Source: Nitrospinales bacterium (GTDB taxonomy: Bacteria > Nitrospinota > Nitrospinia > Nitrospinales > JAJDAT01). Taken from it: a stretch of 37,949 nucleotides of DNA. The translations under genes were made by a program, and so were the position numbers. Shown here piece after piece: positions 9,294 to 34,745 of this stretch (position 1 is the first letter of the stretch; every line of letters begins with the position of its first letter). The stretch lies in NCBI GenBank assembly GCA_046757665.1, contig JBHHYO010000016.1, positions 1 through 37,949 of the forward strand. Direction: 5' to 3'. The notes beneath the pieces are model-generated. The model was not told the DNA's origin and did not search any database. It saw nothing but the letters and a program-made list of their open reading frames with translations.

Positions 9294-9302
9294 CGGCGGC
9301 CC

Positions 9303-10154: not shown

Positions 10155-10187
10155 GTGCGTAATTTAGCAAAATTCGAGCGGGATTGT

Positions 10188-10802: not shown

Positions 10803-10963
10803 GTCTCTTCCTCCTGACAAGAAGGATGCTTTGGTCTGCGCGGCCTTGAAGCGGTGGCGGGGCCGGGCGCTTATCCCCGTGTGCCCCCGGTTTTGGCCGC
10901 CGGCATCGCCGGGCAACCTCGCCGGGGGCTCGCGTTTGTCTGACCGGAAAACTCCGTCGGTTC

Positions 10964-11470: not shown

Positions 11471-11532
11471 GATAATTACTCCTTTTTTGAGGTTGATGAC
11501 GAGATGAAAGCCATCCCTTGGCTTTCAAAAAA

Positions 11533-11561
11533 CAAATAAAACCGATAGAATCCCCTGTCAA
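11533..11561 (-). promoter_or_regulatory. Candidate sigma70-type promoter for the hsp20 genes
   Basis: TTGACA (11561-11556), 17-bp spacer, weak -10 TATTTG (11538-11533). Confidence 0.4.
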
Positions 11562-11588
11562 GTTACACCTCATGAAAAAAAGGCGCCG

Positions 11589-13040
11589 GTGGATATGAAT
11601 TTTCGGCTAATCGGTTTCGTCGTTGGAATTTTTCTTTTTGCCCTGGGGGTCATGATGGCCGTCCCGGCGGCGGTCGATGCCGCCGCGGGCAACGAAGACT
11701 GGCGGGTTTTTGCCGGATCGGGGTTGTTTACCGGCATGACGGGCGGGTTGTTGTGCCTTGCCACCCGGGGAGAAAAGCTCGTCCCGGGTATCCGCGACTC
11801 GTTTCTTTTGACTTCCCTGGCCTGGACGGTGGTCAGCCTTTTTGCGGCGGCGCCGCTTTTTTTTTCCTCGCGTAGCCTTGGCGTGACGGACGCCCTGTTT
11901 GAAACCGTTTCCGGGTTGACGACCACGGGGGCGACGGTCCTGTCGCATCTTGACGCGATGCCGCCGGGTCTCCTGCTCTGGCGGTCGTTGTTGCAGTGGA
12001 TCGGCGGCATCGGCATCATTGTGCTTGCCGTGGCGGTTCTTCCCTATCTGGGCGCAGGCGGAATGCGGCTGTTTCACACGGAATCCTCCGACCGATCCGA
12101 AAGGCCCATGGCCCGGCTGAAACCGCTGGCCGGCACGATCAGCCTCGTTTACCTCGGGCTTACCCTGGCCTGCGCCCTGGCGTATTACGCCGCGGGCATG
12201 ACCCTTTTCGAGTCCGTCAATCACGCATTGACGACGCTTTCGACCGGCGGTTATTCAACGTCGGATCAATCCATCGGGCATTTTGCCGCCCCGGCCGTTC
12301 AGTGGGTGGGTATCGTTTTCATGATCCTCGCCGGTTTGCCGTTTGTGCTTTACATTCGCGCCCTGAAAGGCGAGCGCGGCGCGTTATGGCGGGACGGCCA
12401 GGTGCGGCTGTTTTTCAGGTTTCTGCTCGTTTCCGTTTTGGTGTTTACGGTGTGGTTTTGGGCGGCGCGGGAGGAACCCTTTGCCGGCGCCCTGCTTCAC
12501 GTGGCGTTTCACATCACGTCCATTCTGACGACCACGGGGTATTCGACCGTGGATTACAGTCAATGGGGAACCCTGGCATTCGAGACGGTTTTCTTTCTGA
12601 CCTTCGTTGGCGGGTGCTCCGGTTCCACATCGGGCGGCATCAAGATGTTTCGCTTCGAGGTGATGTTCAATCTGATCGGGATTCAGATGAAGCGCCTGAT
12701 TCATCCTCACATCGTGCTTTCCCCAAAGTACAACGGCAAGCCCATCGACGAAGGCACGGTTCAGTCGGTGATGACGTTTTTTGTGCTTTATCTGTTGAGC
12801 GTTGCCCTGCTGGCGCTTGCCTTGTCGGCGCTGGGGCTGGATGTTGTGACTTCGGCCAGCGGCGCGGCGACGGCCATTGCGAACGTGGGTCCGGGGTTGG
12901 GGGCGGTCATCGGCCCGGGCGGCACTTTTGCGCCGTTGCCCGACGCCGCGAAATGGCTTCTCATGTTCGGAATGTTGCTGGGCCGGCTCGAACTGTTCAC
13001 GGTGCTGATTCTGTTCACGCCGCAATTTTGGCGGAAATGA
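11589..13040 (+). CDS. trkH: TrkH family potassium uptake membrane protein
   Basis: Four selectivity-filter motifs (SGLTTTG, LSTGG, LTTTG, ANVGPG), GGCSGSTSGGIK and LGRLELFT. The start could be 11595. Confidence 0.95.
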   Translation: MDMNFRLIGFVVGIFLFALGVMMAVPAAVDAAAGNEDWRVFAGSGLFTGMTGGLLCLATRGEKLVPGIRDSFLLTSLAWTVVSLFAAAPLFFSSRSLGVTDALFETVSGLTTTGATVLSHLDAMPPGLLLWRSLLQWIGGIGIIVLAVAVLPYLGAGGMRLFHTESSDRSERPMARLKPLAGTISLVYLGLTLACALAYYAAGMTLFESVNHALTTLSTGGYSTSDQSIGHFAAPAVQWVGIVFMILAGLPFVLYIRALKGERGALWRDGQVRLFFRFLLVSVLVFTVWFWAAREEPFAGALLHVAFHITSILTTTGYSTVDYSQWGTLAFETVFFLTFVGGCSGSTSGGIKMFRFEVMFNLIGIQMKRLIHPHIVLSPKYNGKPIDEGTVQSVMTFFVLYLLSVALLALALSALGLDVVTSASGAATAIANVGPGLGAVIGPGGTFAPLPDAAKWLLMFGMLLGRLELFTVLILFTPQFWRK

Positions 13041-20085: not shown

Positions 20086-20114
20086 TTGACCTGGGTACGG
20101 TCTCAACTTACAAT
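20086..20114 (+). promoter_or_regulatory. Sigma70-type promoter upstream of rlpA
   Basis: TTGACC (20086-20091), 17 bp, TACAAT (20109-20114) in an AT-rich divergent intergenic region. Confidence 0.6.
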
Positions 20115-20254
20115 AAAGTTCGTGCGTGGAAAATGAAACCACATATATTAGAGTAGGTTAGGTTAAAAGTCACGAGTTTTTTTCCCCGTCGCGAATTTTC
20201 GTGTAAAGAGGTCCCTTTTCCCCTGGAAATCGTCAATTCCTGAATCGATTGCCG

Positions 20255-21082
20255 ATGTTTGCTTTTGTTATCCCGGTCGGGCGCCGCAAGGTTTTTGCGG
20301 AGGCTGGTTGCGGTTTTCTGCTCGCCTGCTTTTTGGGTTGCGCTACCCATCCGTCTCTTCCTCTTAAGCCGAAGACCGTCGGGACCATGGGGCAACAGGA
20401 GATTGCAACTCCCTCTTCCGGCCTTGAGCCGGAGACCGCCCGAGTCATGGAACAACAGGAAGCGGCGATTCCCTACCGGGTGCTTGGCGCAACCTATTAT
20501 CCCTTGAAAAGCGCCGGGCGCTTTTCTCAGGAGGGCATTGCGTCATGGTACGGCCCGAAATTTCACGGCCAATTGACCTCCAACAAGGAAACTTATGACA
20601 TGAACGCCATGACCGCGGCTCACAAGACCCTGCCGTTCAACACCCGGGTGAAAGTCGTCAACCTTGAGAACGGGTTGGAAGCGGTGGTCAGAATTAACGA
20701 CCGGGGCCCTTTTGTGGGCGACCGTATCATTGATTTGAGCCGCAAGGCCGCCGAGCAGTTGGGCGTCATTGAAAAAGGCACGGCGCGGGTGCGGTTGACC
20801 GCCCTGGCGGAGCCCCGTGACGGCTCTCATTCCGCGGCGGCCCAGGCGATTGAGAGCTTCTCCGTGCAGGTGGGCGTTTTTAAGGACCGCGGCAACGCCG
20901 GGCGATTGGAACGGCAGGTGCCCAACAGCCGCACTGAGTCCCAGGTCAAGGGAGGAGAAACCTATTTTCGGGTATTGGTGGGGCGTTACGCCGATTTTGA
21001 GGAAGCTTCCAGGCAAATGGATGCGTTGCGCTCCCTGGGGTATGCCGGGGCGTTTATCGTCGCCGCCAACAAGAAGCCCTGA
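20255..21082 (+). CDS. rlpA: Septal ring lytic transglycosylase RlpA with SPOR domain
   Basis: Lipobox-like FLGC, GIASWYG, TAAHKTLP, VRINDRGPF, RIIDLS and a C-terminal SPOR (VQVGVF). Start codon uncertain. Confidence 0.9.
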   Translation: MFAFVIPVGRRKVFAEAGCGFLLACFLGCATHPSLPLKPKTVGTMGQQEIATPSSGLEPETARVMEQQEAAIPYRVLGATYYPLKSAGRFSQEGIASWYGPKFHGQLTSNKETYDMNAMTAAHKTLPFNTRVKVVNLENGLEAVVRINDRGPFVGDRIIDLSRKAAEQLGVIEKGTARVRLTALAEPRDGSHSAAAQAIESFSVQVGVFKDRGNAGRLERQVPNSRTESQVKGGETYFRVLVGRYADFEEASRQMDALRSLGYAGAFIVAANKKP

Positions 21083-21177
21083 AGCCCGCCTTGAGATCAT
21101 GTAGATTTTTTTGGCCTTTTTCACATAAAATCCCTACACTGCGGACCGGATTTTTACTTTAGGAGGAAAGCTTGCCC

Positions 21178-21663
21178 ATGCGGTTGCCCATCTTGGAAAA
21201 ACTGGAAAAAGAACTTAAGGAATCCGAAAGAGAACTTAAGGTCGATATTCCCCAGGCGTTAAAAGTCGCCACGGCCATGGGGGATTTAAGCGAAAACGCC
21301 GACTACAAGGCCGCCAAGGAGCGGCAGATGTTTTTGGAGTCCAGGATATCTCTTTTGCAAAAGCGGGTGGCAGACATCACCTCCCTCAATATTGAGCGGA
21401 TACCCAGGGATCGGTCCGCTTTGGGAAGTACGCTGGTTCTGAAAGAAGTAGAATCGGGAAAATCCAAGGTTTACAAACTGGTTTTCCCCGAGGAGGTTGA
21501 TCCCGAAAACGGCAAAATCTCGCCGGGCTCCCCGGTCGGCAAGAGCTTGTTGGGAAAACGCCCGGGGGACCAGGTGACGATTTCCATGCCGGACAATACC
21601 CGGGTTTATGAAGTGGAGCAGTTGACCACGATCCATGAGGAGTCGGGCCAGGGCTCCGCTTGA
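21178..21663 (+). CDS. greA: Transcription elongation factor GreA
   Basis: GDLSENADY with both catalytic acidic residues and ISPGSPVGKSLLG. AGGAGG RBS; TTG at 21172 is an alternative start. Confidence 0.92.
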   Translation: MRLPILEKLEKELKESERELKVDIPQALKVATAMGDLSENADYKAAKERQMFLESRISLLQKRVADITSLNIERIPRDRSALGSTLVLKEVESGKSKVYKLVFPEEVDPENGKISPGSPVGKSLLGKRPGDQVTISMPDNTRVYEVEQLTTIHEESGQGSA

Positions 21664-21670
21664 ATTCCTC

Positions 21671-22303
21671 ATGTCCGCCAAACGTTTAATCCCCTTCGAG
21701 GAAATCGCGGAGAATCATCCGTATTTTCTTGATTTGGAATCCTGCCCCGACTGGCGCGGCGTTTTTGGAAATTCTCATCCGCTCAAACTGGATATCGGTT
21801 TTGGGACGGGCGGGTTCCTGATGGAGATGGCCATCCGGGAACCGGAAGCCAACTTCGTCGGCATCGACATGTACCACAAGGGCATCCGGAAAATCATTTC
21901 CCGCGTCGACAAGCTTTGCATAGAAAATATCCGCATCGTCTATGGGGACGCCAGGGAAAAAATCGCCGCGATATTTAACGATGAGGAAATCTGCGAGATT
22001 TATATCAATTTTCCCGACCCCTGGCCCAAAAAACGGCACGCGAAAAGACGTTTGATCAAACCGTCCTTTGTCGAAACACTGGCGGCCAAACTGATGCCTC
22101 GGGGAGAGTTGCACCTGGCCACCGATTACGAACCCTACGCCAGGGAAATGTTGGCTTGCTTTGAAGCCGAACACCGCCTGAAAAACAAATCCGGCCAGCC
22201 GGGCTTTTTGCCTTTGCGCGACGGCATCCCCAAATCGAAATACGAAAAAAATTATCTTCGCGCGGGGAAAACGATCTTTTATTTGGATTTCTTCAGGGAA
22301 TAA
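21671..22303 (+). CDS. trmB: tRNA (guanine-N7)-methyltransferase
   Basis: LDIGFGTG, FPDPWPKKRH, ATD and SKYE motifs. Confidence 0.93.
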   Translation: MSAKRLIPFEEIAENHPYFLDLESCPDWRGVFGNSHPLKLDIGFGTGGFLMEMAIREPEANFVGIDMYHKGIRKIISRVDKLCIENIRIVYGDAREKIAAIFNDEEICEIYINFPDPWPKKRHAKRRLIKPSFVETLAAKLMPRGELHLATDYEPYAREMLACFEAEHRLKNKSGQPGFLPLRDGIPKSKYEKNYLRAGKTIFYLDFFRE

Positions 22304-22378
22304 GTTATATCTCTTGGTATCCCATTATCCGCCCGGCGGCCTTGCCGGACAACGATTCACCCTCAAGTGGAGGACGTT

Positions 22379-24412
22379 TTGCAAAAAGAACGCATACTGA
22401 TCGTCGACGATGAAAAAAACATCGTCAGCTCCCTGGAAGGGATTCTGTCCGACGAAGGCTATGACGTGACCTCCGCGGAGGACGGACTGGATGCCCTGGA
22501 AATCGTTCAATCCGATCCGCCCAACCTGGTTCTTCTGGATATCTGGATTCCGGGTATGGACGGCATAGAGGTTTTGCGGACCATCAAGGCGTACAACCCT
22601 GAAACCGATGTTCTGATCATGTCGGGTCATGCCTCCATTGATACGGCGGTCAAGGCCACCAAGCTGGGCGCGTCCGATTTTATTGAAAAGCCGTTTTCTC
22701 TGGATGAGCTGGTCAAATCGGTCAAAAACGTTTTCCGGGAACAAAAGAACCAGGTGCCGCCGGATGAAAAGGGATTCCTGCAAAAAATCGACCTTCTCCT
22801 TTCTTTTCACAAGATGATGGCCGTCAAAAAGAAGATGAAACAAGCGGAGAGCCATACCGAGCCTGTTTTGTTGCTGGGGGAAAAGGGGACCGGCAAGTTG
22901 CTGGTTGCCCGGGAGATTCACCGCCAGAGCGGAATCGCCGGCCGTCCTTTCATAAAGCTCAATTGCTCCGTGGCCCGCATTGCGGAAATTCAAACCCGGC
23001 TGTTCGGCGCGGTAAAAAAGAACTTCTCCGCCGGCAAACCCGCCGGCCGGCCCGCCGGAGCCGGAGAAAAAACGCTTTACCTGGGCAACATCGAATCCTT
23101 GAGCAAAACCATGCAGGAGAAACTGGCCGCGGAACTCGACCAGCATAAAAGACAAAAGGGCTCGTCAAAGCTCCTGCCGGCGCGGTTGTTTGTTTCCTCT
23201 TCAAAGGATTTGAAAGCGCGGGTCAAAAAAGGTTCCTTCAATGGCGATCTGCTGAACCTGTTGTCGGACAACATCATTACAATCCCGCCACTGCGGGAAA
23301 ACGCCGGAGACATTCCCGCGCTGATTCGAAATTATATTCAAGAATCCGCCAAACTCGGCAGAGCAGTAGGTGGGATCGACGAAGAAGCGATGGATGCGCT
23401 GTGTAATTATCATTGGCCCGAGAACATGAGGGAGTTGCGCCTGGTGCTGGAGCAGATTCTGGTCAAGGGTTCGGCGCGCGACCGGATCAGCCTGAAGGAT
23501 TTGCCGCCGGCCATTCGTCGCAAAACCACCGCCAGGAATGCGAAAACCGCCGGCCTGAACGCCAAAAAGGGCAAAACCCGGCGCCTCATGCAACGCACCC
23601 TGAAACGAAGCGTCGTGCTTTGCGGAAGCGGCCTGCATTCCGGAATCAAGACCGGCCTCATTCTTCAGCCCCTGCCGCCGGGCTCCGGGATTATCTTCGG
23701 GGATATTTCAAGCGGCGACACCGTTCCCGCCCGACTGGAAAACGTGCAATCCACCGACTATTCCACCTGTTTGAAAAAAGGGTTTACCTCCGTGGCCACC
23801 ATCGAGCATATCATGGCCGTCCTGCACATGTACCGCATCACCAATCTGCTGATCAAGATTGGCGACGAGGCCCCGGTTATGGACGGGTCGGCAAAGGATT
23901 TTTGCCGCCTCATGGAAGACGGCGACTTCGAGGAACAGGACGAGCCGTATCGGGAAATCGTCATTGACAAACACTACTCGTTCAGTTCCGGGGAAACCGG
24001 CGGCCCTTGCATTAGCATTGAACCTGCCGAAAAATTTACGGTCAGCTACCACATGGCCTATCCCGAACCCATAGGCGTTCAGGACTACACCTACGAGTTT
24101 ACCGATAAGGAAAGCTTCAAAACGCAAATCGCGCCCGCCCGCACCTTCGGGTTTCTCAAAGACGTCGCTCAGTTGACCAAAATGGGCTTTGCCTGCGGCG
24201 GCAAACTCGACAACTTTATCCTGCTGGGCGACAAAAAAGTCCTGAACACCGAGTTGCGCTATCCGGACGAATTCGTCCGCCACAAAATCCTCGACATTAT
24301 CGGCGACTTCTATCTGCTGGGCCGGCCCATCCGGGGGCTTATCAAGGCCCACAAGTCCGGCCACACGGAAAACGTCGGGTTACTCAAGCAAATCCAGGCC
24401 AGCTTGGCCTGA
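22379..24412 (+). CDS. lpxC: Fusion of an NtrX-like receiver, a degenerate sigma54-type AAA+ domain and LpxC (UDP-3-O-acyl-GlcNAc deacetylase)
   Basis: Receiver motifs ILIVDDE, LLDIW and EKPF; Walker A GEKGTGK. LpxC from ~23588: QRTLK, GLHSG, TIEHIMA, PVMDGSA, ARTFGF, RHKILD, KSGH. GGAGG RBS 5 nt before the TTG at 22379. Confidence 0.9.
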   Translation: MQKERILIVDDEKNIVSSLEGILSDEGYDVTSAEDGLDALEIVQSDPPNLVLLDIWIPGMDGIEVLRTIKAYNPETDVLIMSGHASIDTAVKATKLGASDFIEKPFSLDELVKSVKNVFREQKNQVPPDEKGFLQKIDLLLSFHKMMAVKKKMKQAESHTEPVLLLGEKGTGKLLVAREIHRQSGIAGRPFIKLNCSVARIAEIQTRLFGAVKKNFSAGKPAGRPAGAGEKTLYLGNIESLSKTMQEKLAAELDQHKRQKGSSKLLPARLFVSSSKDLKARVKKGSFNGDLLNLLSDNIITIPPLRENAGDIPALIRNYIQESAKLGRAVGGIDEEAMDALCNYHWPENMRELRLVLEQILVKGSARDRISLKDLPPAIRRKTTARNAKTAGLNAKKGKTRRLMQRTLKRSVVLCGSGLHSGIKTGLILQPLPPGSGIIFGDISSGDTVPARLENVQSTDYSTCLKKGFTSVATIEHIMAVLHMYRITNLLIKIGDEAPVMDGSAKDFCRLMEDGDFEEQDEPYREIVIDKHYSFSSGETGGPCISIEPAEKFTVSYHMAYPEPIGVQDYTYEFTDKESFKTQIAPARTFGFLKDVAQLTKMGFACGGKLDNFILLGDKKVLNTELRYPDEFVRHKILDIIGDFYLLGRPIRGLIKAHKSGHTENVGLLKQIQASLA

Positions 24413-24457
24413 TCGCACTTTCCCTTCTTGCGGAATGAGGAGGATGGCCTGCGCGGC

Positions 24458-26227
24458 CTATCGGCGTTTGAGGACAAACAGGTTGCCCGCAACCCATTGT
24501 CCCCGGTCCTTGCGGAGGTCCGCCGACCGGTGCGATTCCACCGAGAACCCGTGCTCGACAGCAAGCGTTTGCACGTAAGCCCGGGAGTGCGCGTATCGTC
24601 CGGTAGGACGCAGAACGTAGTCGGCGGGTTCCGAGGATTTCTTTTTGGCCAGCCAGCCCCGTGCTCGTTTGAGCCTGCCCGGATTTTCTTCGTCCGGTTT
24701 TTCGACGGAAAAAACGAAGGGGGCGCCCGGTGCGGCGCAATGGGCGACGGCCTGGAAAATCGGCCGCAAGTTGCCCAGGTACACAAAAACATCCGTGGAG
24801 ATGATCAGGTCGTATGTTTCCCCGGCGGTGTTGAGGATTTCGATGATGTCCCCGACGCGCAGGTCGTCGTAGATATTTTTTCCCCGAGCCCGTTCGATCA
24901 TTTTGGAGGAAATGTCGATACCGCTCAGGCGGTCGGCGATATCGCGAAACGCCGTTCCGCCCAGTCCCGTGCCGCAACCCAGGTCAACGGCGTTTTTAAA
25001 CCTCGCGTTTCCGCGCAGGCGGTCCAGTTCGCGCCGCAGTAAGGCGGGCGTTTGGTACTCCAGGTTGTCGATCAGGTGGTGGTCGAACTTGGTTGAAAAT
25101 TCGTCGAACAGGTCCTTGACGTATTCCGTCGAGGCGGTTTCCGGCGTTTGCCCCGTCAGGGCCGCCAGCATGTGGCGGGTGGAGGCGTTTTCGGGGTCGA
25201 GTTCCAGGGCGCGTTCGTAAGCGGCCCGGGCGTCCTCGTAGTGGTCCTGGTCCGCCAGCGCCCCGCCGAGGTTGGCGTAGGCGTTGGCGTAGTCGGGTTT
25301 CAACTCGATAGCGCGCCGGTAGCAGACGATGGCTTCGTCCCGCCGGTCGCATTCTTTCAGAGCATTGCCCAGGTTGTTGTGCGCCTCGGCGAAATCCGGG
25401 TCGAGGGCAATGGCGCGCCGCAGGCAGGAGGCCGCGGCTTCCGCCCGGCCCAGAAACCGCAACATGTTTCCCAGGTTATTGTGCGCTTCGGCGGAATTCG
25501 GATTGATGTTGAGAGCCTGTTGAAACGCCCCGGCCGCTTCGTCCGGCCGCCCCAGGTCCTTGCAGACGTTGCCCAGGTTGTTGTACGCCGCGGCGAATTC
25601 AGGATTGATGGCGATGGCCCGGCGGTAGGCGGTCTCGGCCTCTTCGGGTTTACCCTGGTCTGCCAGCGCCCGTCCCAGCTCGTATTGCGTTGTCGCGTCG
25701 CCGGAATTCAGGGCGGCGGCCTGCCGGTACGACGCCAGCGCTTCGTCGTTTTTACCTTGGCGGCCGAGCGATTTGCCGAGATTGATATGGGCTTCGACAA
25801 GATGCGGATTGAAGGCGGTGGCCTGCCGGCAAGCCGCCTCCGCTTCCGCAAACCGGCCCAGATCGCTGAGCACGACGCCAAGATGGTTATAGGCATCGTC
25901 GAAATGCGGGTCGATGGCGACCGCCTCCCGAAAACACGCCGCGGCTTGTTCCAGCCGGCCCAGGCGTTGATACGCAAGGCCAAGGCTGTTACGCACCTCG
26001 GCAAGGCGGGGCGCGCGAGCCACCGCCTTGATCAACAGATCCACCGCCGCCTCGTGGTTGCCCAACTGTGTTGACAGCACGCCCAGAAGATGCAACGTCT
26101 CCGCATTCTCCGGCTCCGCCGCCAGGATTTCGCGGTAAAGGGATTCAGCTTGTTTTAAGCGCCCTTCCTTATGATGTTGCAGGGCCAGGTAAAAATTTTC
26201 CTGGAAGTTGGCGGATGAGTTGCTCAT
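24458..26227 (-). CDS. TPR (10 repeats) + class I SAM-dependent methyltransferase, paralog 1
   Basis: 34-aa TPR repeats, YVKDLFD, DLGCGTG, DVFVYLGNL and GRYAHS. Start chosen by alignment with the paralog N-termini. Confidence 0.88.
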   Translation of the reverse strand: MSNSSANFQENFYLALQHHKEGRLKQAESLYREILAAEPENAETLHLLGVLSTQLGNHEAAVDLLIKAVARAPRLAEVRNSLGLAYQRLGRLEQAAACFREAVAIDPHFDDAYNHLGVVLSDLGRFAEAEAACRQATAFNPHLVEAHINLGKSLGRQGKNDEALASYRQAAALNSGDATTQYELGRALADQGKPEEAETAYRRAIAINPEFAAAYNNLGNVCKDLGRPDEAAGAFQQALNINPNSAEAHNNLGNMLRFLGRAEAAASCLRRAIALDPDFAEAHNNLGNALKECDRRDEAIVCYRRAIELKPDYANAYANLGGALADQDHYEDARAAYERALELDPENASTRHMLAALTGQTPETASTEYVKDLFDEFSTKFDHHLIDNLEYQTPALLRRELDRLRGNARFKNAVDLGCGTGLGGTAFRDIADRLSGIDISSKMIERARGKNIYDDLRVGDIIEILNTAGETYDLIISTDVFVYLGNLRPIFQAVAHCAAPGAPFVFSVEKPDEENPGRLKRARGWLAKKKSSEPADYVLRPTGRYAHSRAYVQTLAVEHGFSVESHRSADLRKDRGQWVAGNLFVLKRR

Positions 26228-26266
26228 GGGAGGCATTGGCGACACGGTTGACTATTGTTTCGCCGC

Positions 26267-26295
26267 ATGTTATCACGATAAACACCAAGAGACAA
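26267..26295 (-). promoter_or_regulatory. Candidate promoter for paralog 1
   Basis: TTGTCT, 17 bp, TAACAT with an extended TGn motif. Confidence 0.45.
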
Positions 26296-26368
26296 AAAAT
26301 TGCGGAACCCCCCGGCGACCCGGGAGCGCGGGCTTTCCGGCCTGCGCGCGGAAACAAAATGGTATTTC

Positions 26369-28231
26369 ATGGATAGAGCGGAGCGGCGGCGCCGGGAAAA
26401 ATTGCAGAAAAAATTCGGCGACACGCCACCGGTTTTTGATGCCCGGAGCTCGCTTCAGCAAGCCGCCTCCCATCACCGGGCAGGGCGCTTGCGGGAGGCG
26501 GAACAATTGTACCAGCAGGTGCTGGCCGCCGAACCGGAAAACGCCGAGGCCTTGCACTCGCTGGGAATCCTCGCCCGGCAAATCGGGATGCCCGATGTCG
26601 CCCTGGAACTGATCAAAAAAGCCCTCGCCGCAAACCCCGGCGAAATCCTTTATACCGGCAACCTGGGAAACGTGTACAAGGACCTGGGACGGCTGGAGGA
26701 GGCGGAAACCTGTTACCGCCAGGTCTTGCAGGCCATGCCCTATTCGGACGTGGCGCACGGCAACCTGGGCATTGTCTTGCAGGAGCGGGACAAGCTCGAC
26801 GAGGCCGTTGCCTGTTACCGCCGCGCCCTGGAACTCAATCCCGGTTACGCGGAAGCGCATTGTTGCCTCGGTGGCGTGTGGCGGACGCGAAACCGGCTCC
26901 GCGAGGCGGAGGACGCTTTTCGCCAGGCTCTGAAAATCAATCCAAATTATGTGGACGCGCTGTGCAACCTCGGCGTTGTGCTCCAGGAACAGGGGAAATC
27001 GGAGGAGGCAGAGGCTTCTTTCCGTCACGCACTGCAAATCGCTCCCGAATCGCCGGTGGCCTGGTTCAACCTGGGCGCCGCTCTGCAAGCCGCGGGCAAC
27101 CTGGACGAGGCCATTGACTGTTACCGCCGCGCCCGGGAACTCAATCCCGCTCATCCGGAATCCCACAACAACCTGGGCGTCGCCTTGCAGGCCGGGGGAC
27201 GAGTGGACGAGGCCATTGAGTGTTACCGCCGCGCCCTGGAAGCCGACCCGGATTATGTCGAGTCGCGCTTCAACCTCGGCCTCGCTTTCAAGGAAACCGG
27301 GCGGTCGGACGAGGCGGTTTCCGTCTGGCGCCGTGTTTTGCAAATCGACCGGGGCCATGCCGGAGCGTGTCGGCATCTTTGCGAGGAGCTGTTTTCGGCC
27401 GGACGCCTGGACGAGGCGGAAACCGTAGCGCGCGAAGCCGCGGACCTTGACCCCAAGGCCGCATACCCTTGGTCCCTGTTAGGCCGCATCAGTATCAAAC
27501 GCAACGACCCCGGCGGTGCGGAGTCCCATTTTCGCCATTGCCTGAGCCTGGACGCCGCCGACCCCTTCGCCGTGCGCCTGGAACTCGCCGCTCTGGGGGC
27601 GGACATTGTGCCCGACCGGGCCTCGGACGCCTATATCCTCCGCCATTATGCCGAACAGGCGGTGAACTGGGACAAAACCGTCGCCACCGAAACCTATCAC
27701 GGACACAACCTGGTCCTCACTGCGCTTGAGCCGGAACTGCGAAAAACTTCGCGTCCCGCCGTGCTCGACGCCGGTTGTGGAACCGGGGTTTTGGGGCCGC
27801 GTCTCCGCCCATCCGCAAGCCGCCTGGACGGCGTTGACCTGTCGCCGCAAATGATCGCCGCCGCCCGACGCAAAAACGTGTATGACCGCCTGGAGGTGGA
27901 GGACGTGGTGACTTTCATGCAGTCGAACGCCGACGTTTACGATATTGTCATGGCCGCCGCCGTGTTGATTCACTTTGGCGACCTCGGCCCGGCGTTCGCG
28001 GCGGCGAAAACCGCCTTGCGGAAAAACGGACTGTTTGTGTTCACGCTGTTTAAAAGCAGTGGGGCCGACGTTGCCGCGTCGGATTTCCGGTGCCATTTGC
28101 ATAGCCGGGCCTACGTGGCCGCCCAGGCGGAAAAATCCGGGTTTCGGGTCGAAGCGATTCGGGAGGCGGCGCATGAATACCGCGACAGCCGGCCCATAGA
28201 GGGATTGGTCGTCTCCCTGCGGAAAGAATAA
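26369..28231 (+). CDS. TPR (~11 repeats) + SAM methyltransferase, paralog 2 (inverted, divergent)
   Basis: TPR repeats, LDAGCGTG, GVDLSPQM and HLHSRAY. Leader MDRAERRRREK. Confidence 0.88.
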   Translation: MDRAERRRREKLQKKFGDTPPVFDARSSLQQAASHHRAGRLREAEQLYQQVLAAEPENAEALHSLGILARQIGMPDVALELIKKALAANPGEILYTGNLGNVYKDLGRLEEAETCYRQVLQAMPYSDVAHGNLGIVLQERDKLDEAVACYRRALELNPGYAEAHCCLGGVWRTRNRLREAEDAFRQALKINPNYVDALCNLGVVLQEQGKSEEAEASFRHALQIAPESPVAWFNLGAALQAAGNLDEAIDCYRRARELNPAHPESHNNLGVALQAGGRVDEAIECYRRALEADPDYVESRFNLGLAFKETGRSDEAVSVWRRVLQIDRGHAGACRHLCEELFSAGRLDEAETVAREAADLDPKAAYPWSLLGRISIKRNDPGGAESHFRHCLSLDAADPFAVRLELAALGADIVPDRASDAYILRHYAEQAVNWDKTVATETYHGHNLVLTALEPELRKTSRPAVLDAGCGTGVLGPRLRPSASRLDGVDLSPQMIAAARRKNVYDRLEVEDVVTFMQSNADVYDIVMAAAVLIHFGDLGPAFAAAKTALRKNGLFVFTLFKSSGADVAASDFRCHLHSRAYVAAQAEKSGFRVEAIREAAHEYRDSRPIEGLVVSLRKE

Positions 28232-28247
28232 AACAGCCGTCTGCTTC

Positions 28248-29669
28248 CTACGAGGTTTGTGCGCGTGGCAGACGTTTCAGAATATAAATATCCCCCGCCA
28301 CGCCTTTCCCCTGTTCCTTGCGGATTTCCGCGGGCGTACACGTTTCGACGGTGAAACCGAATTCCCCGGCCAGCGACCGGATGTGGTTTTGCGAATGAGC
28401 ATAACGTCCGGTAGGACGCAAAACGTAGTCGCCGTCGTCGGCGTGTTCCGTGGAAAAAGCGAAATAGGCCCCGTCGGATGAGGCCTTCTCCACGGCCTGG
28501 AAAACCGGCCGCAAATTGCCGAGGTACACAAAGACGTCCGCGGCGGTGAACAGGTCGTACGTTTCGTCCGCCCGGTTCAGCCACTCGACGAAGTTATCGA
28601 CCCGCAAGTCATCGTAGATGCTTTTTTCCCGCGCCTTGTCGATCATTTTGGGAGAGAGGTCGATACCGTGAAGGGTTTCGGCGATGGGGCGAAAAGCCGT
28701 ACCGCTGAGCCCCGTGCCGCACCCCAGGTCCATAACGCGGCGCGGCGGCGTATGTTTATCTGTGAGCTTGTCGAATTCCCGGCGCAGAAGGGCAGGGGTT
28801 TTGTAGTCGAGCATCTGCGTCAGCTCGCGGTCGAACTTGCCGGCAAACCCGTCAAACAGTTCCTTGATGTATTGAGGAGGCGCGGATTCCGGAGTTTGCC
28901 CCGTCAGCGCCGCCAGCATGTGCGCGGCGGCGGCATTGGCGGGGTCGATTTCCATGACGCGGCGGCAACAGGCGGCCGCTTGCTCCAGTTTCCCCTGATT
29001 GCGGTACAGGGTGGCCAGGTTGCCGTGCGCCTCCGCGTAATCGGGCCGGATGGCGATGGCACGGTCGTAGCAGGCGATGGCCTCCCCCTGTTTGCCCTGT
29101 TCCGTCAGGGCGATGCCGAGGTTGTAATGCGCCTCGGCGTAACCGGGGTCGATCTCGATGGCCCGCCGGTGTGCGGCGACGGCCTCCTCCTGGCGGTCCA
29201 GCTCGCCCAGCGCATGGCCCAGGTTGTTGTGAGCCTGGGCGTAGTCGGGCCGGATGGCGATGGCGTGCCGGTAGCAGGCAATCGCCTCGTCCAGCCGGCC
29301 TTGCAGGGCCAGCGCCTTGCCCAGGTTGTCGTGCGCTTCGGTAAAGTCCGGGTTGAGGGTGACGGCCTGGCGGTAAGCATCGGCGGCCTGTCCCAACCGG
29401 TCTTGCGCGCCGAGCGTATTGCCCAGGTTGTTGTAAGCTTCGGGGAATTCCGGACGCAACTGGATCGCCCGGTTGATCAGCGCGGCGGCGTTTTTGTGGT
29501 CCCCCCCCTGGTAGGCCAGCACGCCGAGAAGATGCAGGGCGTCCGGCTGGTCGGGAACGGTTTTCAGGATTTCGCGGTAAATATATTCCGCTTCTTCCAG
29601 GTCTCCGGACTGGTGACTTTGTACGGCAAGATTGAGCGCATCCTGGATGCTGACGGGTTCACGGTTCAT
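28248..29669 (-). CDS. TPR (7 repeats) + SAM methyltransferase, paralog 3
   Basis: YIKELFD, DLGCGTG, DVFVYLGNL and GRYAHS. ATGA overlap with the upstream paralog. Confidence 0.9.
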   Translation of the reverse strand: MNREPVSIQDALNLAVQSHQSGDLEEAEYIYREILKTVPDQPDALHLLGVLAYQGGDHKNAAALINRAIQLRPEFPEAYNNLGNTLGAQDRLGQAADAYRQAVTLNPDFTEAHDNLGKALALQGRLDEAIACYRHAIAIRPDYAQAHNNLGHALGELDRQEEAVAAHRRAIEIDPGYAEAHYNLGIALTEQGKQGEAIACYDRAIAIRPDYAEAHGNLATLYRNQGKLEQAAACCRRVMEIDPANAAAAHMLAALTGQTPESAPPQYIKELFDGFAGKFDRELTQMLDYKTPALLRREFDKLTDKHTPPRRVMDLGCGTGLSGTAFRPIAETLHGIDLSPKMIDKAREKSIYDDLRVDNFVEWLNRADETYDLFTAADVFVYLGNLRPVFQAVEKASSDGAYFAFSTEHADDGDYVLRPTGRYAHSQNHIRSLAGEFGFTVETCTPAEIRKEQGKGVAGDIYILKRLPRAQTS

Positions 29670-31195
29670 GATTGGGTTTGGTTGGATTGTTTTGTTTTTG
29701 CGAGAATGAAGAGGTCTCCCGGAATGCCCCGGTCCTTTTCCTTGCGCACGTCCACCGACCGGCAGTACTCGATGGAGAAGCCATACCGCTCTGCGAGCGA
29801 CCGGATATACGCCCGCGAGTGCGCGTAGCGTCCGGTAGGACGCAGGATGTAATCGCCTTCCTCAATGCTTTCGTTGGAAAACAGGAAATAGGCGCCGTCG
29901 GCCGCGCAATGGGCCATTGATGCGAAAACAGGTTGCAGGTTGCCCATGTACACGAACACGTCGGTGGCGAGGATCAGATCGAATTTTTCCTCGGTTTGGC
30001 TGACGAATTCGATCAGGTTGCCGACCGAAAGTTCGTCGTAGACACCTTTTTCCCTGGCCTTTTCCACCATTTGAGGAGAGATATCGATGCCGGTCAGCCG
30101 GTCGGCGATGTTGCGGAACTGCACTCCGGCCAGGCCCGTGCCGCATCCCAGGTCGATGGCGTTGTGGAACCGGACGCCTTTTTTCAGCAGGTCGCCGAAT
30201 GCCTGGCGGATCAATGCCGGGACGTCATATTCCAGCACCTCGACCAATTGATGCTCGAATTTTGCGGAGAACAGGTCGAACAGATTTTTGACATATTCCG
30301 GCGGGGTGGATTCCGTGGTTTCTCCGGTCAGGGCGGCCAGCATGTGGCGCGCCGAACTGTTGTCCGGATCGATCTCGGCGACGCGCCGGTAACAGGCGAT
30401 GGCTTCGTCCAGTTTGCCCTGGTCTCCGAAGGCGATGGCGAGGTTATGGTGGACGCTGGTGAAATCCGGCTTGATGGCGATGGCCCGCTGATAGGCGCTT
30501 ACCGCTTCGTCCAGCCGGTTCAGGTCGGCGAGGGTCGTGCCCAGATTGTAGTAGGGCTCGGCGAAGTTCGGGTCGATGGCGATGGCGCGCCGGTAGCTTG
30601 CCATCGCTTCCTGCGTTTTGCCTTGGGCGGCCAGGGCGATGCCGAGGTTGTTGTACGCGCCGGGGAAATTCGGAATCACCGACAGCGCCTGCCGGCTACA
30701 GGCGATGGCTTCGTCCAGCCGACCCAGGTCGGTGAGCAGTTTGCCGAGGTTGTTGTGCGCCGGGGCGAATTCCGGCAGGAGGCTGACGGCGTGCCGGTAG
30801 CAGGCCAGGGCTTCTTCCGGTTTGCCTTGCTCCCGAAGTGCGTTACCGAGGTTGTTGTGAGCTTCGATGAAGTTCGGGGTGAGGTCGATGGCGCGCCGGA
30901 AAGCGCTGACCGCCTCTTCCCACCGGCCTGCCGCGGTGAAGGCGTTGCCAAGGTTGTACCAGGCTCCGGAATCGTTTGGTTCGATGTGCAGTGCCTTGTC
31001 GATCATTTCGATGGCGGTGGCGGCTTCCCCCGATTGGTACGCCAGCAGGCCGAGCATGTGGAAAGCCCCGGCATGGTGTGGGGACGTTTCCAGAATGTTC
31101 CGGTACAAGGCCGCGGCTTCATCCAGCCGCCCGGCCTTGTGGTGCTGGAGGGCGAGGTCGAATGCCTCCCGGGGGTTGTCGGGCCGGTCGCTCAT
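29666..31195 (-). CDS. TPR (8 repeats) + SAM methyltransferase, paralog 4
   Basis: Start MSDRPDN at an ATGA overlap (31192-31195); YVKNLFD, DLGCGTG and GRYAHS. Confidence 0.9.
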   Translation of the reverse strand: MSDRPDNPREAFDLALQHHKAGRLDEAAALYRNILETSPHHAGAFHMLGLLAYQSGEAATAIEMIDKALHIEPNDSGAWYNLGNAFTAAGRWEEAVSAFRRAIDLTPNFIEAHNNLGNALREQGKPEEALACYRHAVSLLPEFAPAHNNLGKLLTDLGRLDEAIACSRQALSVIPNFPGAYNNLGIALAAQGKTQEAMASYRRAIAIDPNFAEPYYNLGTTLADLNRLDEAVSAYQRAIAIKPDFTSVHHNLAIAFGDQGKLDEAIACYRRVAEIDPDNSSARHMLAALTGETTESTPPEYVKNLFDLFSAKFEHQLVEVLEYDVPALIRQAFGDLLKKGVRFHNAIDLGCGTGLAGVQFRNIADRLTGIDISPQMVEKAREKGVYDELSVGNLIEFVSQTEEKFDLILATDVFVYMGNLQPVFASMAHCAADGAYFLFSNESIEEGDYILRPTGRYAHSRAYIRSLAERYGFSIEYCRSVDVRKEKDRGIPGDLFILAKTKQSNQTQS

Positions 31196-32904
31196 GAGGT
31201 GTGGCTCTCCTCCGCCGCGGCATCGGTTTTTCTCAGGACATAAATGTCTCCGGTGACCCACCGGCCCCTGTCCAGGCGCATGTCCACCGACCGGCACGAC
31301 TCGACGGCGAAACCGTGGTCCCGTGCCAGGGAGCGGATGTAATCCCGCGAGTGAGCGTAATGCCCGTTGTGTTTCATACTGAAATCGCCTTGGGCGCCGC
31401 TTTCCGTAGAAAACACGAAAAGCGCGTCCCGCGCCGCGCAATTGCCGACGGCATGGAAAACAGGTTGCAGGTTTCCCAGGAGGGAAAAGACGTCGGCGGC
31501 GGCGATTAAATCATATTTTTCGCCGGAACCTTTGGAAAAATCCATGATATCGGCGACCTGCAAGTGATCGTAAATGCCCTTGGCTCTTGTTATCTTGATC
31601 ATTTTAGGCGAAATGTCGATGCCGCTCAAGCGCTGGGCGATATTGCGGATGGTCGCTCCGAGCAATCCCGCGCCGCATCCCAGGTCGATGGCATTTTCAA
31701 ACCGTTTGCCGTTGCGCAGTTTGTCGATCTCCCGTTTTAGCAGGTGCGAGGCTTTTGTGGGGAGTTTGTCTTCTTGCGGCGTTTCGTTCGAGCCCTGCGG
31801 TTGCGTCGCTCCCGGGGGCGCGAGGGTGTTGGTGAGTGTCTCCAGGAAATGGTTCGCCGAGGGGTTGGAAGGGTCTATCTCTATGGCGCGGCGCGCCGCG
31901 GCCTCGGCTTTTTTGAACTCCCCTTCACTGGCGAGCGCCAGGCCCAGGTGAAAATGGGCATCGGCGTAATTTGCGTCGATGCCGATGGCGCATTGGAAGG
32001 CGGCGACGGCCTCTCCGGGTTTGCCCCGGTTGCCCAGCGCCTTGCCCAGGTTGAGGTACGCTTCGGCAAAATCCGGACGGAGGGCGGTGGCCCGGCGGAA
32101 AGCATCGGCGGCCTCCTCCGACCGGCCCCGGGCGCCGAGGGCGTTTCCCAGGCCATGGTGCGCGTCGGCATCGCCTGGGTTGAGTTCGACGGCCCGTCGA
32201 AGGCAGGGAATGGCTTCTTCCGCCTTGCCTTGTTCCAAAAGCGCGTTTCCCAGGTTGTAATGCGCGGCGGCGAAATTCGGCATCAGGAGCGTAGCCTGGC
32301 GGTAGGCGTCGACAGCTTCCTGTGGTTTGTCCTGGTCGCCGAGCGTTTTGCCGAGGTTGTACCAGGCTTCCGCGGCGTTCGGGTCGAGGGCGACGGTTTG
32401 CCGCAAGGCGTCGGCGGCTTCGTCCAGTCTTCCCTGGGCGCCCAGCGCCAGGCCCAGGTTGTGGTGGGCTTCGGCGAAGTCCGGTCTGAGGTCGGCGGCC
32501 CGGCGGCATTGGGCGGCGGCTTCCGCCGGCTGGCCCAGGTGGGCCAGCGCCTTGCCCAGGTTGTTGTGCGCCTCCGCGAAGCCGGGGCGCAGGACGAGAA
32601 CCCGCCGGTAGCAGGCGATGGCCTCTTGTAGTCGCCCCCGCTCACCCAGGGCGTTGCCGAGGGTGAAGCGCGCCTCGACAAAATCGGGGTCGATCCGCAA
32701 TGCTTTCTCAAGCGCTTCGATGGCGGCATCCGGTTTTCCCAACTGCGTGCAAACCATTCCCAGCAAGTGCAGGGTGTCGGTGTTGTCGGGCGCGGCGCGG
32801 AGAATGTCCCGATAAAGCCGTTCCGCTTCTTCCAGCCGCCCCGCCCGGTGGCGGCTGACGGCAAAGTCGAGCGATGCCTGAAGATTTGTCGATGGATTAT
32901 TCAT
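31192..32904 (-). CDS. TPR (10 repeats) + divergent SAM methyltransferase, paralog 5
   Basis: Start MNNPST at an ATGA overlap (32901-32904). DLGCGAG is present but the YVKxLFD segment is missing. Confidence 0.88.
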   Translation of the reverse strand: MNNPSTNLQASLDFAVSRHRAGRLEEAERLYRDILRAAPDNTDTLHLLGMVCTQLGKPDAAIEALEKALRIDPDFVEARFTLGNALGERGRLQEAIACYRRVLVLRPGFAEAHNNLGKALAHLGQPAEAAAQCRRAADLRPDFAEAHHNLGLALGAQGRLDEAADALRQTVALDPNAAEAWYNLGKTLGDQDKPQEAVDAYRQATLLMPNFAAAHYNLGNALLEQGKAEEAIPCLRRAVELNPGDADAHHGLGNALGARGRSEEAADAFRRATALRPDFAEAYLNLGKALGNRGKPGEAVAAFQCAIGIDANYADAHFHLGLALASEGEFKKAEAAARRAIEIDPSNPSANHFLETLTNTLAPPGATQPQGSNETPQEDKLPTKASHLLKREIDKLRNGKRFENAIDLGCGAGLLGATIRNIAQRLSGIDISPKMIKITRAKGIYDHLQVADIMDFSKGSGEKYDLIAAADVFSLLGNLQPVFHAVGNCAARDALFVFSTESGAQGDFSMKHNGHYAHSRDYIRSLARDHGFAVESCRSVDMRLDRGRWVTGDIYVLRKTDAAAEESHTS

Positions 32905-34739
32905 GCCAACCCGCCCGGCGGGCGCCCGGTTTTGCGAAGAACGAACAGGTCGCCCGCAACCCACTGGCCCTTGTCCTTTCTGATGTTCTCCCGGCGGCAG
33001 GTCTCGACGGCGAAGCCGAACGCGACGGCCAGGGATTCAATATAGCCGCGTGAATGCGTGAAGCGTCCGGTGGGACGCAGAATGTAATCTCCGTCGTCGG
33101 AGCTTTCGGTCGAAAACACGAAATAAGCCCCCTTGGCGGCGCAGTGCTGAACGGCGTTGAACACAGCGCGCAGGTTTCCCAGATAAACCAGGACATCGAC
33201 GGCGGCGATGAGGTGGTATGTTGCCGTGGCCGAGGCGTTGAGAAATTCGATGAAGTCGCCGACGCGCAGGTCGTCATAGACGTTTTTCTCACGAGCCTTG
33301 GCGACCATTTTGGGGGAGAGGTCGATGCCTTGCAGGCGGTGGGCGATGGTTCGGAATTCCGCGCCGCTGAGTCCCGTGCCGCATCCCAGGTCGATGGCGT
33401 TTTCAAAAAAGGCCTGTCCGTCGAACAGCCGGTCCAGTGTCTCGCGCAACAACCGGGGAGTCCGGTATTCCAGGTTGTCCACGAGTTGCCGGTCGAACTT
33501 TCCGGAGAACCCGTCGAACAGGTCCTTGACGTATTGCGGCGAGGCCGACTCCAGAGTCTGCCCCGTCAGGGCCGCCAGCATGTGCCTGGCTGAAGCGTTG
33601 TCGGGGTTGAGTTCCACGGCGCGGCGGTAGGCGGCGGTGGCTTCCTCCGGTTTGCCCAGGTCGCCGAGGGCGATGCCCAGGTTGAAATACGCATCGGCAA
33701 AATCCGGACGGAGGGCGGTGGCCCGGCGGAAAGCATCGGCGGCCTCCTGCAATGCATTGTTTTCGACGAGGACGACGCCGAGGTTGTTGTGAGCCTCGGC
33801 ATAGTCGGGGTTGATGGCAATGGCGCGGCGGTAGGCGTCCGCGGCTTCCTTCGATTGGCCCATGTCGCCGAGGGCCTTGCCGAGGTTGTTGTGGGCCTCG
33901 GCGGAATCCGGTTTCAGTTCCGCGGCGCGTCGGCAGGCATCGACAGCTTCCTTCGCTTGGCCCAGGCCGCCCAGCGCGATGCCGAGGTTGAAATGCGCGT
34001 CGGCGAAATCCGGGCGGATAGCGATGGCGCGACGGTAATTCTCCACCGCTTCGTCCGGTTTGTTTTGCCGGGCGAGGACGTTGCCGAGATTGTAGAGAGC
34101 TTCGGGATAGTTGGGTTCGATGGCGATGGCGCGGCGATGAGCCTCGACGGCTTCGTCCAGTTCGCCCAGGTCGGCGAGCGCGGCGCCGATATTCTGGTGG
34201 ACTTCGGCGAAGTCGGGGGCGAGGGCGACAGCACGGCGGAACGCTTCGATGGCGGTCCGCGTTTTGCCCTGCTCGTGCAAGGCCTTGCCGAGGCTGTTGT
34301 GCGCGTCGACGAGGCTGGGGTCGATGGCGATGGCGCGGTGAAACGCCTCGACCGCCGCTGTCGTCTCGCCTTGATGGGCAAGCATTTTGCCGAGGTGATG
34401 ATGCGCCCCGGCGAGGTTGGGGTCGATGGCGATGGCGCGGCGGAATGCCTCGACTGCCGCATCCGTCTTGCCTTGCTCTCCCAGCGCGTTGCCCAGGTTG
34501 TAGTGGGCGTCGGCAAACTCGGGATGAATGTGGATCGCTTTGCCTATCAATTCGACGGCATGGTCGTAATTGCCCAACTGGGACAAGAGCGTGCCCAGCA
34601 GATGCAGGGTGTTGACTTCTTCAGGCGCAACTTTCAGGATTTCCCCGTAGATGTGCTCCGCTTCTTTCAGTCTTCCCGCCTGATGGTGCTTGACGGCCAG
34701 GTTGAGCGCATCTTGAAGGTTGAAGGCTTGGTTATTCAT
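32901..34739 (-). CDS. TPR (11 repeats) + SAM methyltransferase, paralog 6
   Basis: YVKDLFD, DLGCGTG and GRFTHS. Start is 34739 or 34745; the latter abuts the upstream TGA. Confidence 0.9.
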   Translation of the reverse strand: MNNQAFNLQDALNLAVKHHQAGRLKEAEHIYGEILKVAPEEVNTLHLLGTLLSQLGNYDHAVELIGKAIHIHPEFADAHYNLGNALGEQGKTDAAVEAFRRAIAIDPNLAGAHHHLGKMLAHQGETTAAVEAFHRAIAIDPSLVDAHNSLGKALHEQGKTRTAIEAFRRAVALAPDFAEVHQNIGAALADLGELDEAVEAHRRAIAIEPNYPEALYNLGNVLARQNKPDEAVENYRRAIAIRPDFADAHFNLGIALGGLGQAKEAVDACRRAAELKPDSAEAHNNLGKALGDMGQSKEAADAYRRAIAINPDYAEAHNNLGVVLVENNALQEAADAFRRATALRPDFADAYFNLGIALGDLGKPEEATAAYRRAVELNPDNASARHMLAALTGQTLESASPQYVKDLFDGFSGKFDRQLVDNLEYRTPRLLRETLDRLFDGQAFFENAIDLGCGTGLSGAEFRTIAHRLQGIDLSPKMVAKAREKNVYDDLRVGDFIEFLNASATATYHLIAAVDVLVYLGNLRAVFNAVQHCAAKGAYFVFSTESSDDGDYILRPTGRFTHSRGYIESLAVAFGFAVETCRRENIRKDKGQWVAGDLFVLRKTGRPPGGLA

Positions 34740-34745
34740 TTTCAT

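Follow-up and report, generated by a model that had tools for sequence, protein, structure and literature searches.

A response-regulator receiver fused to the sole LpxC of a Nitrospinales bacterium: a candidate for direct phospho-control by an NtrY-type kinase

LpxC, which commits the cell to the synthesis of outer-membrane lipid A, is the control point of lipopolysaccharide (LPS) synthesis and is pursued in antibiotic development, and its regulation is well understood mainly in enterobacteria, where it runs through FtsH/LapB proteolysis. Response regulators with an enzymatic output include CheB (receiver and methylesterase), PleD and WspR (receiver and GGDEF) and RpfG (receiver and HD-GYP). 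Here, we describe a gene in a stretch of DNA of 37,949 nucleotides (nt) from a Nitrospinales bacterium (GenBank assembly GCA_046757665.1, contig JBHHYO010000016.1, positions 1 to 37,949 of the forward strand), which we call the window; in this gene a response-regulator receiver, a σ54-type AAA+ domain and a complete LpxC share one open frame. RpfG-type proteins are mentioned in bioRxiv 10.1101/2021.11.05.467447.

NtrYX and a σ54-type regulator have been described to act on lpxC at the level of transcription. In R. sphaeroides, the loss of NtrYX raises lpxC mRNA 8.8-fold and increases LPS, and there is no NtrX site at lpxC (PMC7240162). According to a 2025 review on the regulation of lipid A, lpxC transcription is inhibited by NtrYX in R. 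sphaeroides and in C. crescentus (PMC12444477); the NtrYX effects that the review lists are only indirect and transcriptional, and the words receiver, fusion, fused and response regulator are all absent from its text. NtrX is described as lacking the classical GAFTGA motif (bioRxiv 10.1101/2023.06.06.543975). In D. vulgaris, lpxC is the single DAP-chip target of the σ54-type regulator DVU2934, and in S. fumaroxidans lpxC adjoins the operon of an orthologous DVU2934-type regulator (PMC3333781). No description of a receiver-LpxC fusion was found in the literature searched, with supplements and subscription journals outside its scope.

The fusion gene lies on the + strand at 22367..24412, as do all the parts of it that are given below. 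Positions are those of the whole window, and residues are numbered from the GTG at 22367, from which the frame encodes 681 amino acids (aa) with zero internal stops up to the stop codon at 24410-24412. From the TTG at 22379 the product would have 677 aa; a GGAGGA Shine-Dalgarno-like site, read from the sequence, lies at 22369..22374, 4 nt before this TTG, and the database copy of the fusion protein (P0002, 100% identity) is 677 aa long, which fits a start at 22379. A previous reading of this DNA, made from the letters and the list of open reading frames (ORFs) without database searches (the sequence-only reading), had described a single uninterrupted ORF, and this was borne out at 22367/22379..24412. 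It had also proposed a read check over 23500-23600. The Logan contigs of the public runs X1 (23,138 b) and X2 (32,102 b), which come from a different assembler and have a depth of 12-14, agree there, and each covers 22300-24500 with 0 differences and 0 gaps; X1 and X2 may be the source samples of the assembly, so that their agreement is a test of the assembler and not of the sample. Run X3 gave short, unlike pieces only, and the runs listed for this DNA included none of RNA.

The fusion carries the only PF03331 match in the genome, which is 97.56% complete, and this answers the question, raised in the same reading, of whether it is the only lpxC. LpxD and LpxB are present in one copy each, which argues that the lipid A pathway is in use. 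The same open frame was found in relatives. Of 41 genomes from this order (15 genera in 4 families), 39 carry a single LpxC match, in every case within an open frame of 678-797 aa; the remaining two, in which LpxC had no match, reach a completeness of 65% and 78%. In the phylum as a whole, a single LpxC match was found in 108 of 120 genomes, and none of the 120 has an LpxC frame of stand-alone size away from contig ends; the LpxC frames shorter than 600 aa lie at contig ends or are short fused forms. All four domains (receiver, σ54, lid and LpxC) were found in 116 of the 120 database matches listed, and P0026, P0038, P0069 and P0116, three of which are shorter than the rest, have no receiver among their listed domains. 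Taken together, these results show that the fusion gene is real and intact and that it is the sole lpxC of the genome. The receiver and the enzyme domain are in one open frame and are conserved as such, the polypeptide itself being deduced from the gene.

We next describe the two ends of the protein, which are its best conserved parts. The receiver (REC) spans residues 10-119 (22394..22723; PF00072, E 5.7e-33, 113.8 bits, cutoff 30.2) and has the residues D14, D15, D58, S86 and K108. The LpxC deacetylase domain spans residues 409-677 (23591..24397; PF03331, E 1.7e-80, 270.8 bits, cutoff 27) and covers profile positions 1-267 of 268; it also scores 234.3 bits on the NCBIfam lpxC equivalog TIGR00325 (cutoff 187.25). 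In addition, solved LpxC chains can be aligned over the whole length of the LpxC part (E 1.1e-50), with EH, TFGF, HKILDxxGD and SGH in register. The motifs named in the sequence-only reading were all found, namely DDE at 14-16, LLDIW with D58, KPF with K108, EH at 480-481, HKILD at 639-643 and SGH at 664-666. By analogy with LpxC structures, the LpxC motifs would bind zinc through His, His and Asp and would provide Glu, His, Thr, Lys and Asp for catalysis.

Conservation was measured in an alignment of 118 proteins, consisting of the window protein and 117 matches of at least 650 aa that were ranked by the LpxC region. The enzyme residues E480, H481, T593, H639, K640, D643, D647 and H666 are present in 118 of 118 members and are the same in the solved LpxC chains. 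The receiver quintet is conserved to nearly the same extent (D14 in 114, D15 in 117, D58 in 117, S86 in 117 and K108 in 118); the codon of Asp58, the predicted phospho-acceptor, is at 22538..22540, and the one member that does not read Asp at this position has a gap. The mean pairwise identity is 82% for REC and 83% for LpxC, where the ranking by the LpxC region inflates the value for LpxC and not that for REC, compared to 54% for the AAA+ core, 48% for the lid and 33% for the linker between REC and AAA+.

The middle of the protein is in a different state. Behind the linker at residues 120-147 (22724..22807; pLDDT below 50 at 128-138) lies a σ54-type AAA+ core at residues 148-299 (22808..23263; PF00158, 84 bits, E 1.1e-23; pLDDT below 50 at 217-230), followed by an AAA_lid_14 domain at residues 310-393 (23294..23545; PF25601, E 1.4e-17) in which the sensor II motif N..EL is kept. 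The core is degenerate. Walker A (GEKGTGK) is retained, and the Asp-Glu pair of Walker B is replaced by GN in the window protein (LYLGNIE); the family reads [S/T/G]-Asn, with Asn at the Glu position in 114 of 118 members. The arginine-finger position is N in the window protein and Arg in 2 of 118 members. GAFTGA was found in none of 50 aligned members, and the corresponding region is a gapped, variable loop of low complexity. In the divergent members of the family, the Walker B Asp is retained and the Glu is not, and GAFTGA is present in none. Since NtrX itself lacks GAFTGA, its absence from the fusion would be inherited, and the loss of Walker B would be a further decay. A Pfam scan of the window protein gave no match to HTH_8 (PF02954), the Fis-type helix-turn-helix (HTH); instead, a short basic linker at residues 394-408 (23546..23590; pLDDT below 50 at 387-403) takes the place of the HTH of relatives and ends with Met408 (23588-23590). 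Thus none of GAFTGA, Walker B with the arginine finger, and the Fis-type HTH, by which a σ54 activator is recognized, was found in the window protein. The anatomy given in the sequence-only reading is correct, but its "AAA+-like middle" is an understatement: the domain is a pseudo-ATPase in which GAFTGA, the arginine finger and the two acidic residues of Walker B are missing. Taken together, these results show, at the level of motifs, a domain that should be unable to hydrolyse ATP or to contact σ54, in a protein with no predicted DNA-binding domain.

The fusion belongs to a wider family. When 1.84 billion representatives were searched exhaustively and 40 of the matches were scanned with Pfam, the full-length form was found in 13 divergent clusters, with identities as low as 36%, and REC-LpxC without AAA+ (419-483 aa) in 18 clusters; P0137, a protein of 491 aa named Candidatus Entotheonellia, reads REC-HTH_8-LpxC. 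In the lineages that lack both AAA+ and HTH, REC is always still joined to LpxC. The short form was found at full length outside the phylum, in metagenome-assembled genomes that their submitters labelled Binatia, Acidiferrales, Syntrophobacteraceae, Syntrophorhabdus, Thermodesulfobacteriota, Bdellovibrionales and "Deltaproteobacteria". These results indicate that the fusion is a member of a family spread over several phyla and is not unique to this genome. One of the short forms, L024 (7065-9278), has a REC-LpxC frame that is about 320 aa longer at the N-terminus, with no Pfam match in the extension and no ntrY upstream; the extension is either an over-long ORF call or an extra domain of unknown kind.

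The spacer between the lid and LpxC is informative about the origin of the fusion. It has 51 aa in the window protein compared to 100-109 aa in 89 of 120 relatives, whose consensus resembles a Fis-type HTH. Among the closest long forms, HTH_8 is the top match for the long spacer of 1 of 3 and stays below the threshold (E 0.0097, 16.1 bits vs 22). It is above the cutoff between lid and LpxC in the divergent members P0124, P0127, P0131, P0133 and P0136, and ahead of LpxC also in P0137, L114 and L115; the HTH reading of the spacer rests on these divergent members passing the cutoff at the same position. The presence of an HTH between lid and LpxC in relatives suggests that the original event joined a whole REC-AAA+-HTH regulator end to end to LpxC, and the architectures indicate that the HTH, the AAA+ or both were lost afterwards. 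That LpxC stands in the usual place of the HTH, as the sequence-only reading had it, is true of this lineage but not of relatives, in which an HTH is retained ahead of LpxC and behind the lid.

In a maximum-likelihood tree of 67 LpxC domains, one branch (SH-aLRT 99.9) splits the 44 fused from the 23 unfused rows; the tree comes from a quick search with no inferred root, and the unfused sample is small and was taken from the matches of one query. Fused LpxC domains share 49-75% identity with the window LpxC, and unfused ones share 36-42%. A single origin of the fusion is compatible with this tree, which does not prove it. The presence of AAA+ changed at least 5 times among the 44 fused rows. 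Read across the family, these arrangements indicate that the link between REC and LpxC is indispensable and that the transcription-factor parts are dispensable. What appears particular to the window's form is that the ntrY-ntrX operon is split, that the HTH is deleted and that the AAA+ domain is the most decayed.

A Pfam scan of the window genes found no kinase, in agreement with the sequence-only reading. In 4 of 5 loci that come from other families of the phylum, DUF4390-ntrY immediately precedes the fusion. L118 (f9) reads DUF4390, an NtrY-type kinase, REC-AAA+-lid-LpxC (740 aa) and purN; L114 and L115 (f5) read DUF4390, NtrY, REC-HTH_8-LpxC (505-514 aa), purN and lolA; L116 (f7) reads epimerase, DUF4390, NtrY, REC-LpxC (447 aa) and rseP; and L119 (f6) has a full-length fusion with no adjacent kinase. 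Outside the phylum, 12 loci could be judged, and in 8 of them an NtrY-type kinase gene immediately precedes the fusion on the same strand (L023, L026, L027, L028, L030, L031, L034 and L037, and not in L022, L024, L025 and L032); these kinases have 739-778 aa and the architecture NtrY_N-HAMP-PAS-HisKA-HATPase_c. The position directly behind ntrY in relatives suggests that the fusion occupies the ntrX slot of the ntrY operon. DUF4390 is the PlrP family; it has been proposed that, in a subset of NtrYX-type systems, its members act in the periplasm as a third partner of the two-component pair (PMC13001219).

NtrY_N has a single match in the window's genome, in a frame of 794 aa on contig C6 with the same kinase architecture, and the only DUF4390 gene of the genome (tblastn, 40% identity, E 1e-45) lies upstream of it. 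This orphan DUF4390-ntrY pair is at about 31263-34175 of contig C6 of the genome (G000; L103 7263-10176, - strand). Its context, mutS-epimerase-DUF4390-ntrY-Lcl_C with no adjoining regulator, is the same in 5 of 5 genomes examined. NtrY_N was found in 41 of 41 relatives, with a single match in 40, and the NtrY of the window's genome shares 37% identity over 669 aa (E 1e-148) with a kinase that adjoins a short fusion. From the gene order of relatives we infer that the partner kinase is the orphan NtrY-type sensor on C6, with its DUF4390 (PlrP-like) partner. A separate observation is that in two loci, L021 (9204-9677; G008) and L116 (9223-9600; G108), the fusion is followed at a short distance by a gene for a single-domain receiver (126-158 aa), which might serve as a phosphate sink or be phosphorylated by the same kinase as a second target.

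We propose that the gene probably encodes an NtrX-derived response regulator that is covalently fused to the sole LpxC and is under direct phospho-control by NtrY. In this proposal, NtrY with its DUF4390 partner would sense an envelope or periplasmic cue and would phosphorylate Asp58. The change in the receiver would pass through the AAA+/lid scaffold, most likely as a shift between dimer and oligomer states or as the release of an autoinhibitory contact, and LpxC activity would go up or down (either sign is possible), so that the lipid A flux would follow the envelope signal without new transcription. Direct phospho-control had been put forward in the sequence-only reading, and we regard it as the best available explanation. 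Three results strengthen it: REC and the enzyme are conserved to the same degree, REC has stayed on LpxC through every loss of the other domains, and NtrY can be named as the kinase from the gene order of relatives.

Several results weigh against this proposal. The ntrY gene is on a separate contig in the window's genome, which holds about 27 other NtrC-family paralogues as possible partners, and the co-occurrence of NtrY and the fusion carries little weight since both are universal in the clade. The NtrX model NF051870 is the best regulator model for the fusion, yet it gives 245.4 bits compared to a cutoff of 600, and seven other regulators in the genome outscore the fusion on it, so that the fusion ranks 8th. 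By sequence model the N-terminal half is thus not NtrX, and the NtrX label rests on the gene position in relatives and on the shared absence of GAFTGA. An AlphaFold2 model built with 50 sequences has a mean pLDDT of 82.1 with the individual domains confident, and its pTM of 0.49 leaves the arrangement between the domains uncertain. P0138, a divergent full-length fusion of 695 aa in a one-member cluster, carries Ser at the position of Asp58 (LVSLW), and its Walker A is degenerate; the Ser suggests that phosphorylation is not obligatory in every member. As an observation on its own, P0138 is either a phosphorylation-independent member or the product of a sequencing error. A docking prediction of REC-AAA-lid (residues 1-398) against LpxC (405-681), made without controls, scored 0.00 (mark 0.32) and speaks neither for nor against docking.

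Phosphorylation could instead set the stability of the fusion and not its catalysis, if the receiver and AAA+ domains exposed or hid a degron and proteases such as FtsH, Lon or ClpXP adjusted the amount of LpxC in this way. Proteolysis is the established enterobacterial mode of LpxC control (PMC12444477), the low-confidence linkers at 128-138 and 387-403 could be protease entry sites, and the comparative evidence that connects NtrY to REC fits this explanation equally well. However, the ends of family members vary and have no conserved C-terminal tail, and we consider control of stability unlikely. The model Zn_ribbon_LapB has two matches in the genome, but it also matches in 10 of 14 control genomes, including Gram-positives, and is uninformative on LapB.

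An explanation that we hold to be improbable to the same degree is that the fusion is a frozen accident. LpxC would then be constitutive, and the receiver would be kept as a phosphate sink for NtrY, as a partner for other proteins or for co-expression at a fixed ratio. The domain arrangement predicted without confidence, the member without Asp58 and the clearly decaying AAA+ domain fit such an accident. However, if the receiver were of no use to the essential enzyme that carries it, an identity of 82% and invariant phospho-residues across the order would not be expected, and REC stays next to LpxC through the at least 5 changes of AAA+ and across several phyla.

We find it very unlikely that the information flows in reverse, with LpxC sensing its substrate or product and informing the receiver/AAA+ part, which would act on other partners. 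Long forms elsewhere keep HTH_8, and some of them may bind DNA and couple LpxC occupancy to transcription. However, the window protein has no HTH and a dead ATPase, which leaves no evident output besides LpxC, and the invariant catalytic residues in a sole LpxC imply that the domain must work as an enzyme.

The sequence-only reading had named as a possible refutation that LpxC is translated separately from the internal Met at 23588, which would give an ordinary LpxC of about 30 kDa. Met408 directly precedes the QRTLK motif that opens the LpxC domain, and it is presumably the original start of a stand-alone LpxC. However, this column is Met in 7 of 118 members, compared to Pro in 52 and Leu in 34. 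There is no Shine-Dalgarno site 5-10 nt upstream of 23588; the closest stretch of purines, AAGGG, stops some 15 nt short of this codon, and we agree with the same reading that no clear ribosome-binding site precedes this Met. In addition, no promoter-like site was found within the gene on the + strand, in a scan that performs at chance level. Separate translation is thus extremely unlikely, and the enzyme is most likely made as a fusion of about 75 kDa. Finally, an assembly or frameshift artefact that joined two neighbouring genes, or an assembly error that hides a stop, has next to no chance of being correct, since two other assemblies cover the stretch with 0 differences and the same open frame is present in 39 of 41 relatives, with all four domains in 116 of the 120 database proteins listed.

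The genes of the window are ordered oxoprolinase, MBL-fold gene, rlpA-like, greA, trmB and the fusion, followed on the opposite strand by an array of genes for TPR-methyltransferase proteins. The rlpA-like gene (20249..21082), greA (21172..21663) and trmB (21635..22303), all on the + strand and assigned by Pfam, probably share a transcript with the fusion. All 5 of 5 relatives' loci, from 4 families, show the order rlpA-greA-trmB-fusion, and an adjacent kinase was found in none of them. The sole σ70-like site on the + strand is at 20086-20114; promoter-like sites (2 compared to 1.9 expected) and terminator-like sites (6 compared to 7.8 expected) are at chance level. In L014, L020 and L021, from three families, one or two copies of HDOD-domain genes lie a few kb upstream of rlpA-greA-trmB-fusion; the window has none there.

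Downstream of the fusion, six tandem paralogues at 24458-36164 (- strand) each code for TPR repeats with a class I methyltransferase domain behind them (24458-26245, 28248-29669, 29666-31441, 31192-32964, 32901-34745 and 34746-36164), with two ORFs without Pfam matches between the first and the second. This array occupies the place that purN-lolA-rseP has downstream of the fusion in relatives. At 6604-10154 (- strand), a gene with a BatD domain lies between TPR genes in a Bat-like cluster, and a gene with an HSP20 domain adjoins it. Two shadow ORFs without family matches overlap the fusion on the - strand (22325-23155, 276 aa, and 23708-24364, 218 aa), and the relative L014 has an antisense shadow ORF of 690 aa (10150-12222), also without family matches.

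The natural fusion of an NtrX-type receiver to LpxC is a "Rosetta stone" argument for a functional pairing of NtrYX with LpxC. With receiver and enzyme in a single protein, it also makes a possible phospho-control of LpxC accessible to study in vitro. Naming a likely sensor, NtrY with a PlrP-like periplasmic partner, leads to the question of which envelope signal sets the lipid A flux. The family is also a clear case of the stepwise reduction of a transcription factor to a post-translational switch, from REC-AAA+-HTH-LpxC to REC-pseudoAAA+-LpxC, REC-HTH-LpxC and REC-LpxC. In a broader and more tentative view, to which we give slightly less than an even chance, the fusion would represent a third general mode of LpxC control beside proteolysis and transcription; the alphaproteobacterial repression by NtrYX would be the unfused pairing, and the dead AAA+ ring would be a scaffold that switches LpxC through a phosphorylation-driven change of oligomer.

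Compared to known systems, the fusion and its candidate kinase are most like NtrY/NtrX of R. sphaeroides, C. crescentus and Brucella and PlrP-PlrS-PlrR of Bordetella. The kinase has the same NtrY_N-HAMP-PAS-HisKA-HATPase_c architecture, a DUF4390 (PlrP-type) gene lies 5′ of it as in the Bordetella system (PMC13001219), the regulator is a REC-AAA+-(HTH) protein without GAFTGA as described for NtrX, and NtrYX has a reported functional tie to lpxC and to the LPS level (PMC7240162, PMC12444477). Unlike in NtrYX, the regulator here is fused to LpxC itself and ntrY is no longer adjacent; and unlike in NtrX, the HTH is lost and the ATPase appears dead, so that the output could not be transcription, with a score on NF051870 far below its cutoff. 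The DVU2931/DVU2933/DVU2934 system of D. vulgaris is similar, by its description, in having a σ54-type NtrC-family regulator dedicated to lpxC (PMC3333781), but it is a system of transcriptional control through separate proteins. With enterobacterial FtsH, LapB (YciM) and LapC (YejM), the fusion shares the amount or activity of LpxC as the control point of lipid A flux (PMC12444477), but those act in proteolysis as separate proteins, whereas the fusion carries its putative regulator in cis.

Natural fusions of LpxC are known in LpxC-FabZ (NCBIfam NF009667), a model that matches the LpxC part of the window protein with 198 bits compared to a cutoff of 465; the partner there is a C-terminal metabolic enzyme, whereas here it is an N-terminal signalling module. 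As in CheB, PleD and RpfG, a receiver and an enzyme are in one polypeptide, so that phosphorylation could gate catalysis directly; unlike in these proteins, a decayed AAA+ domain lies between the two. Taken together, these comparisons suggest, as the best reading, that the fusion is a response regulator with an enzymatic output, a branch of NtrYX that reaches LpxC directly.

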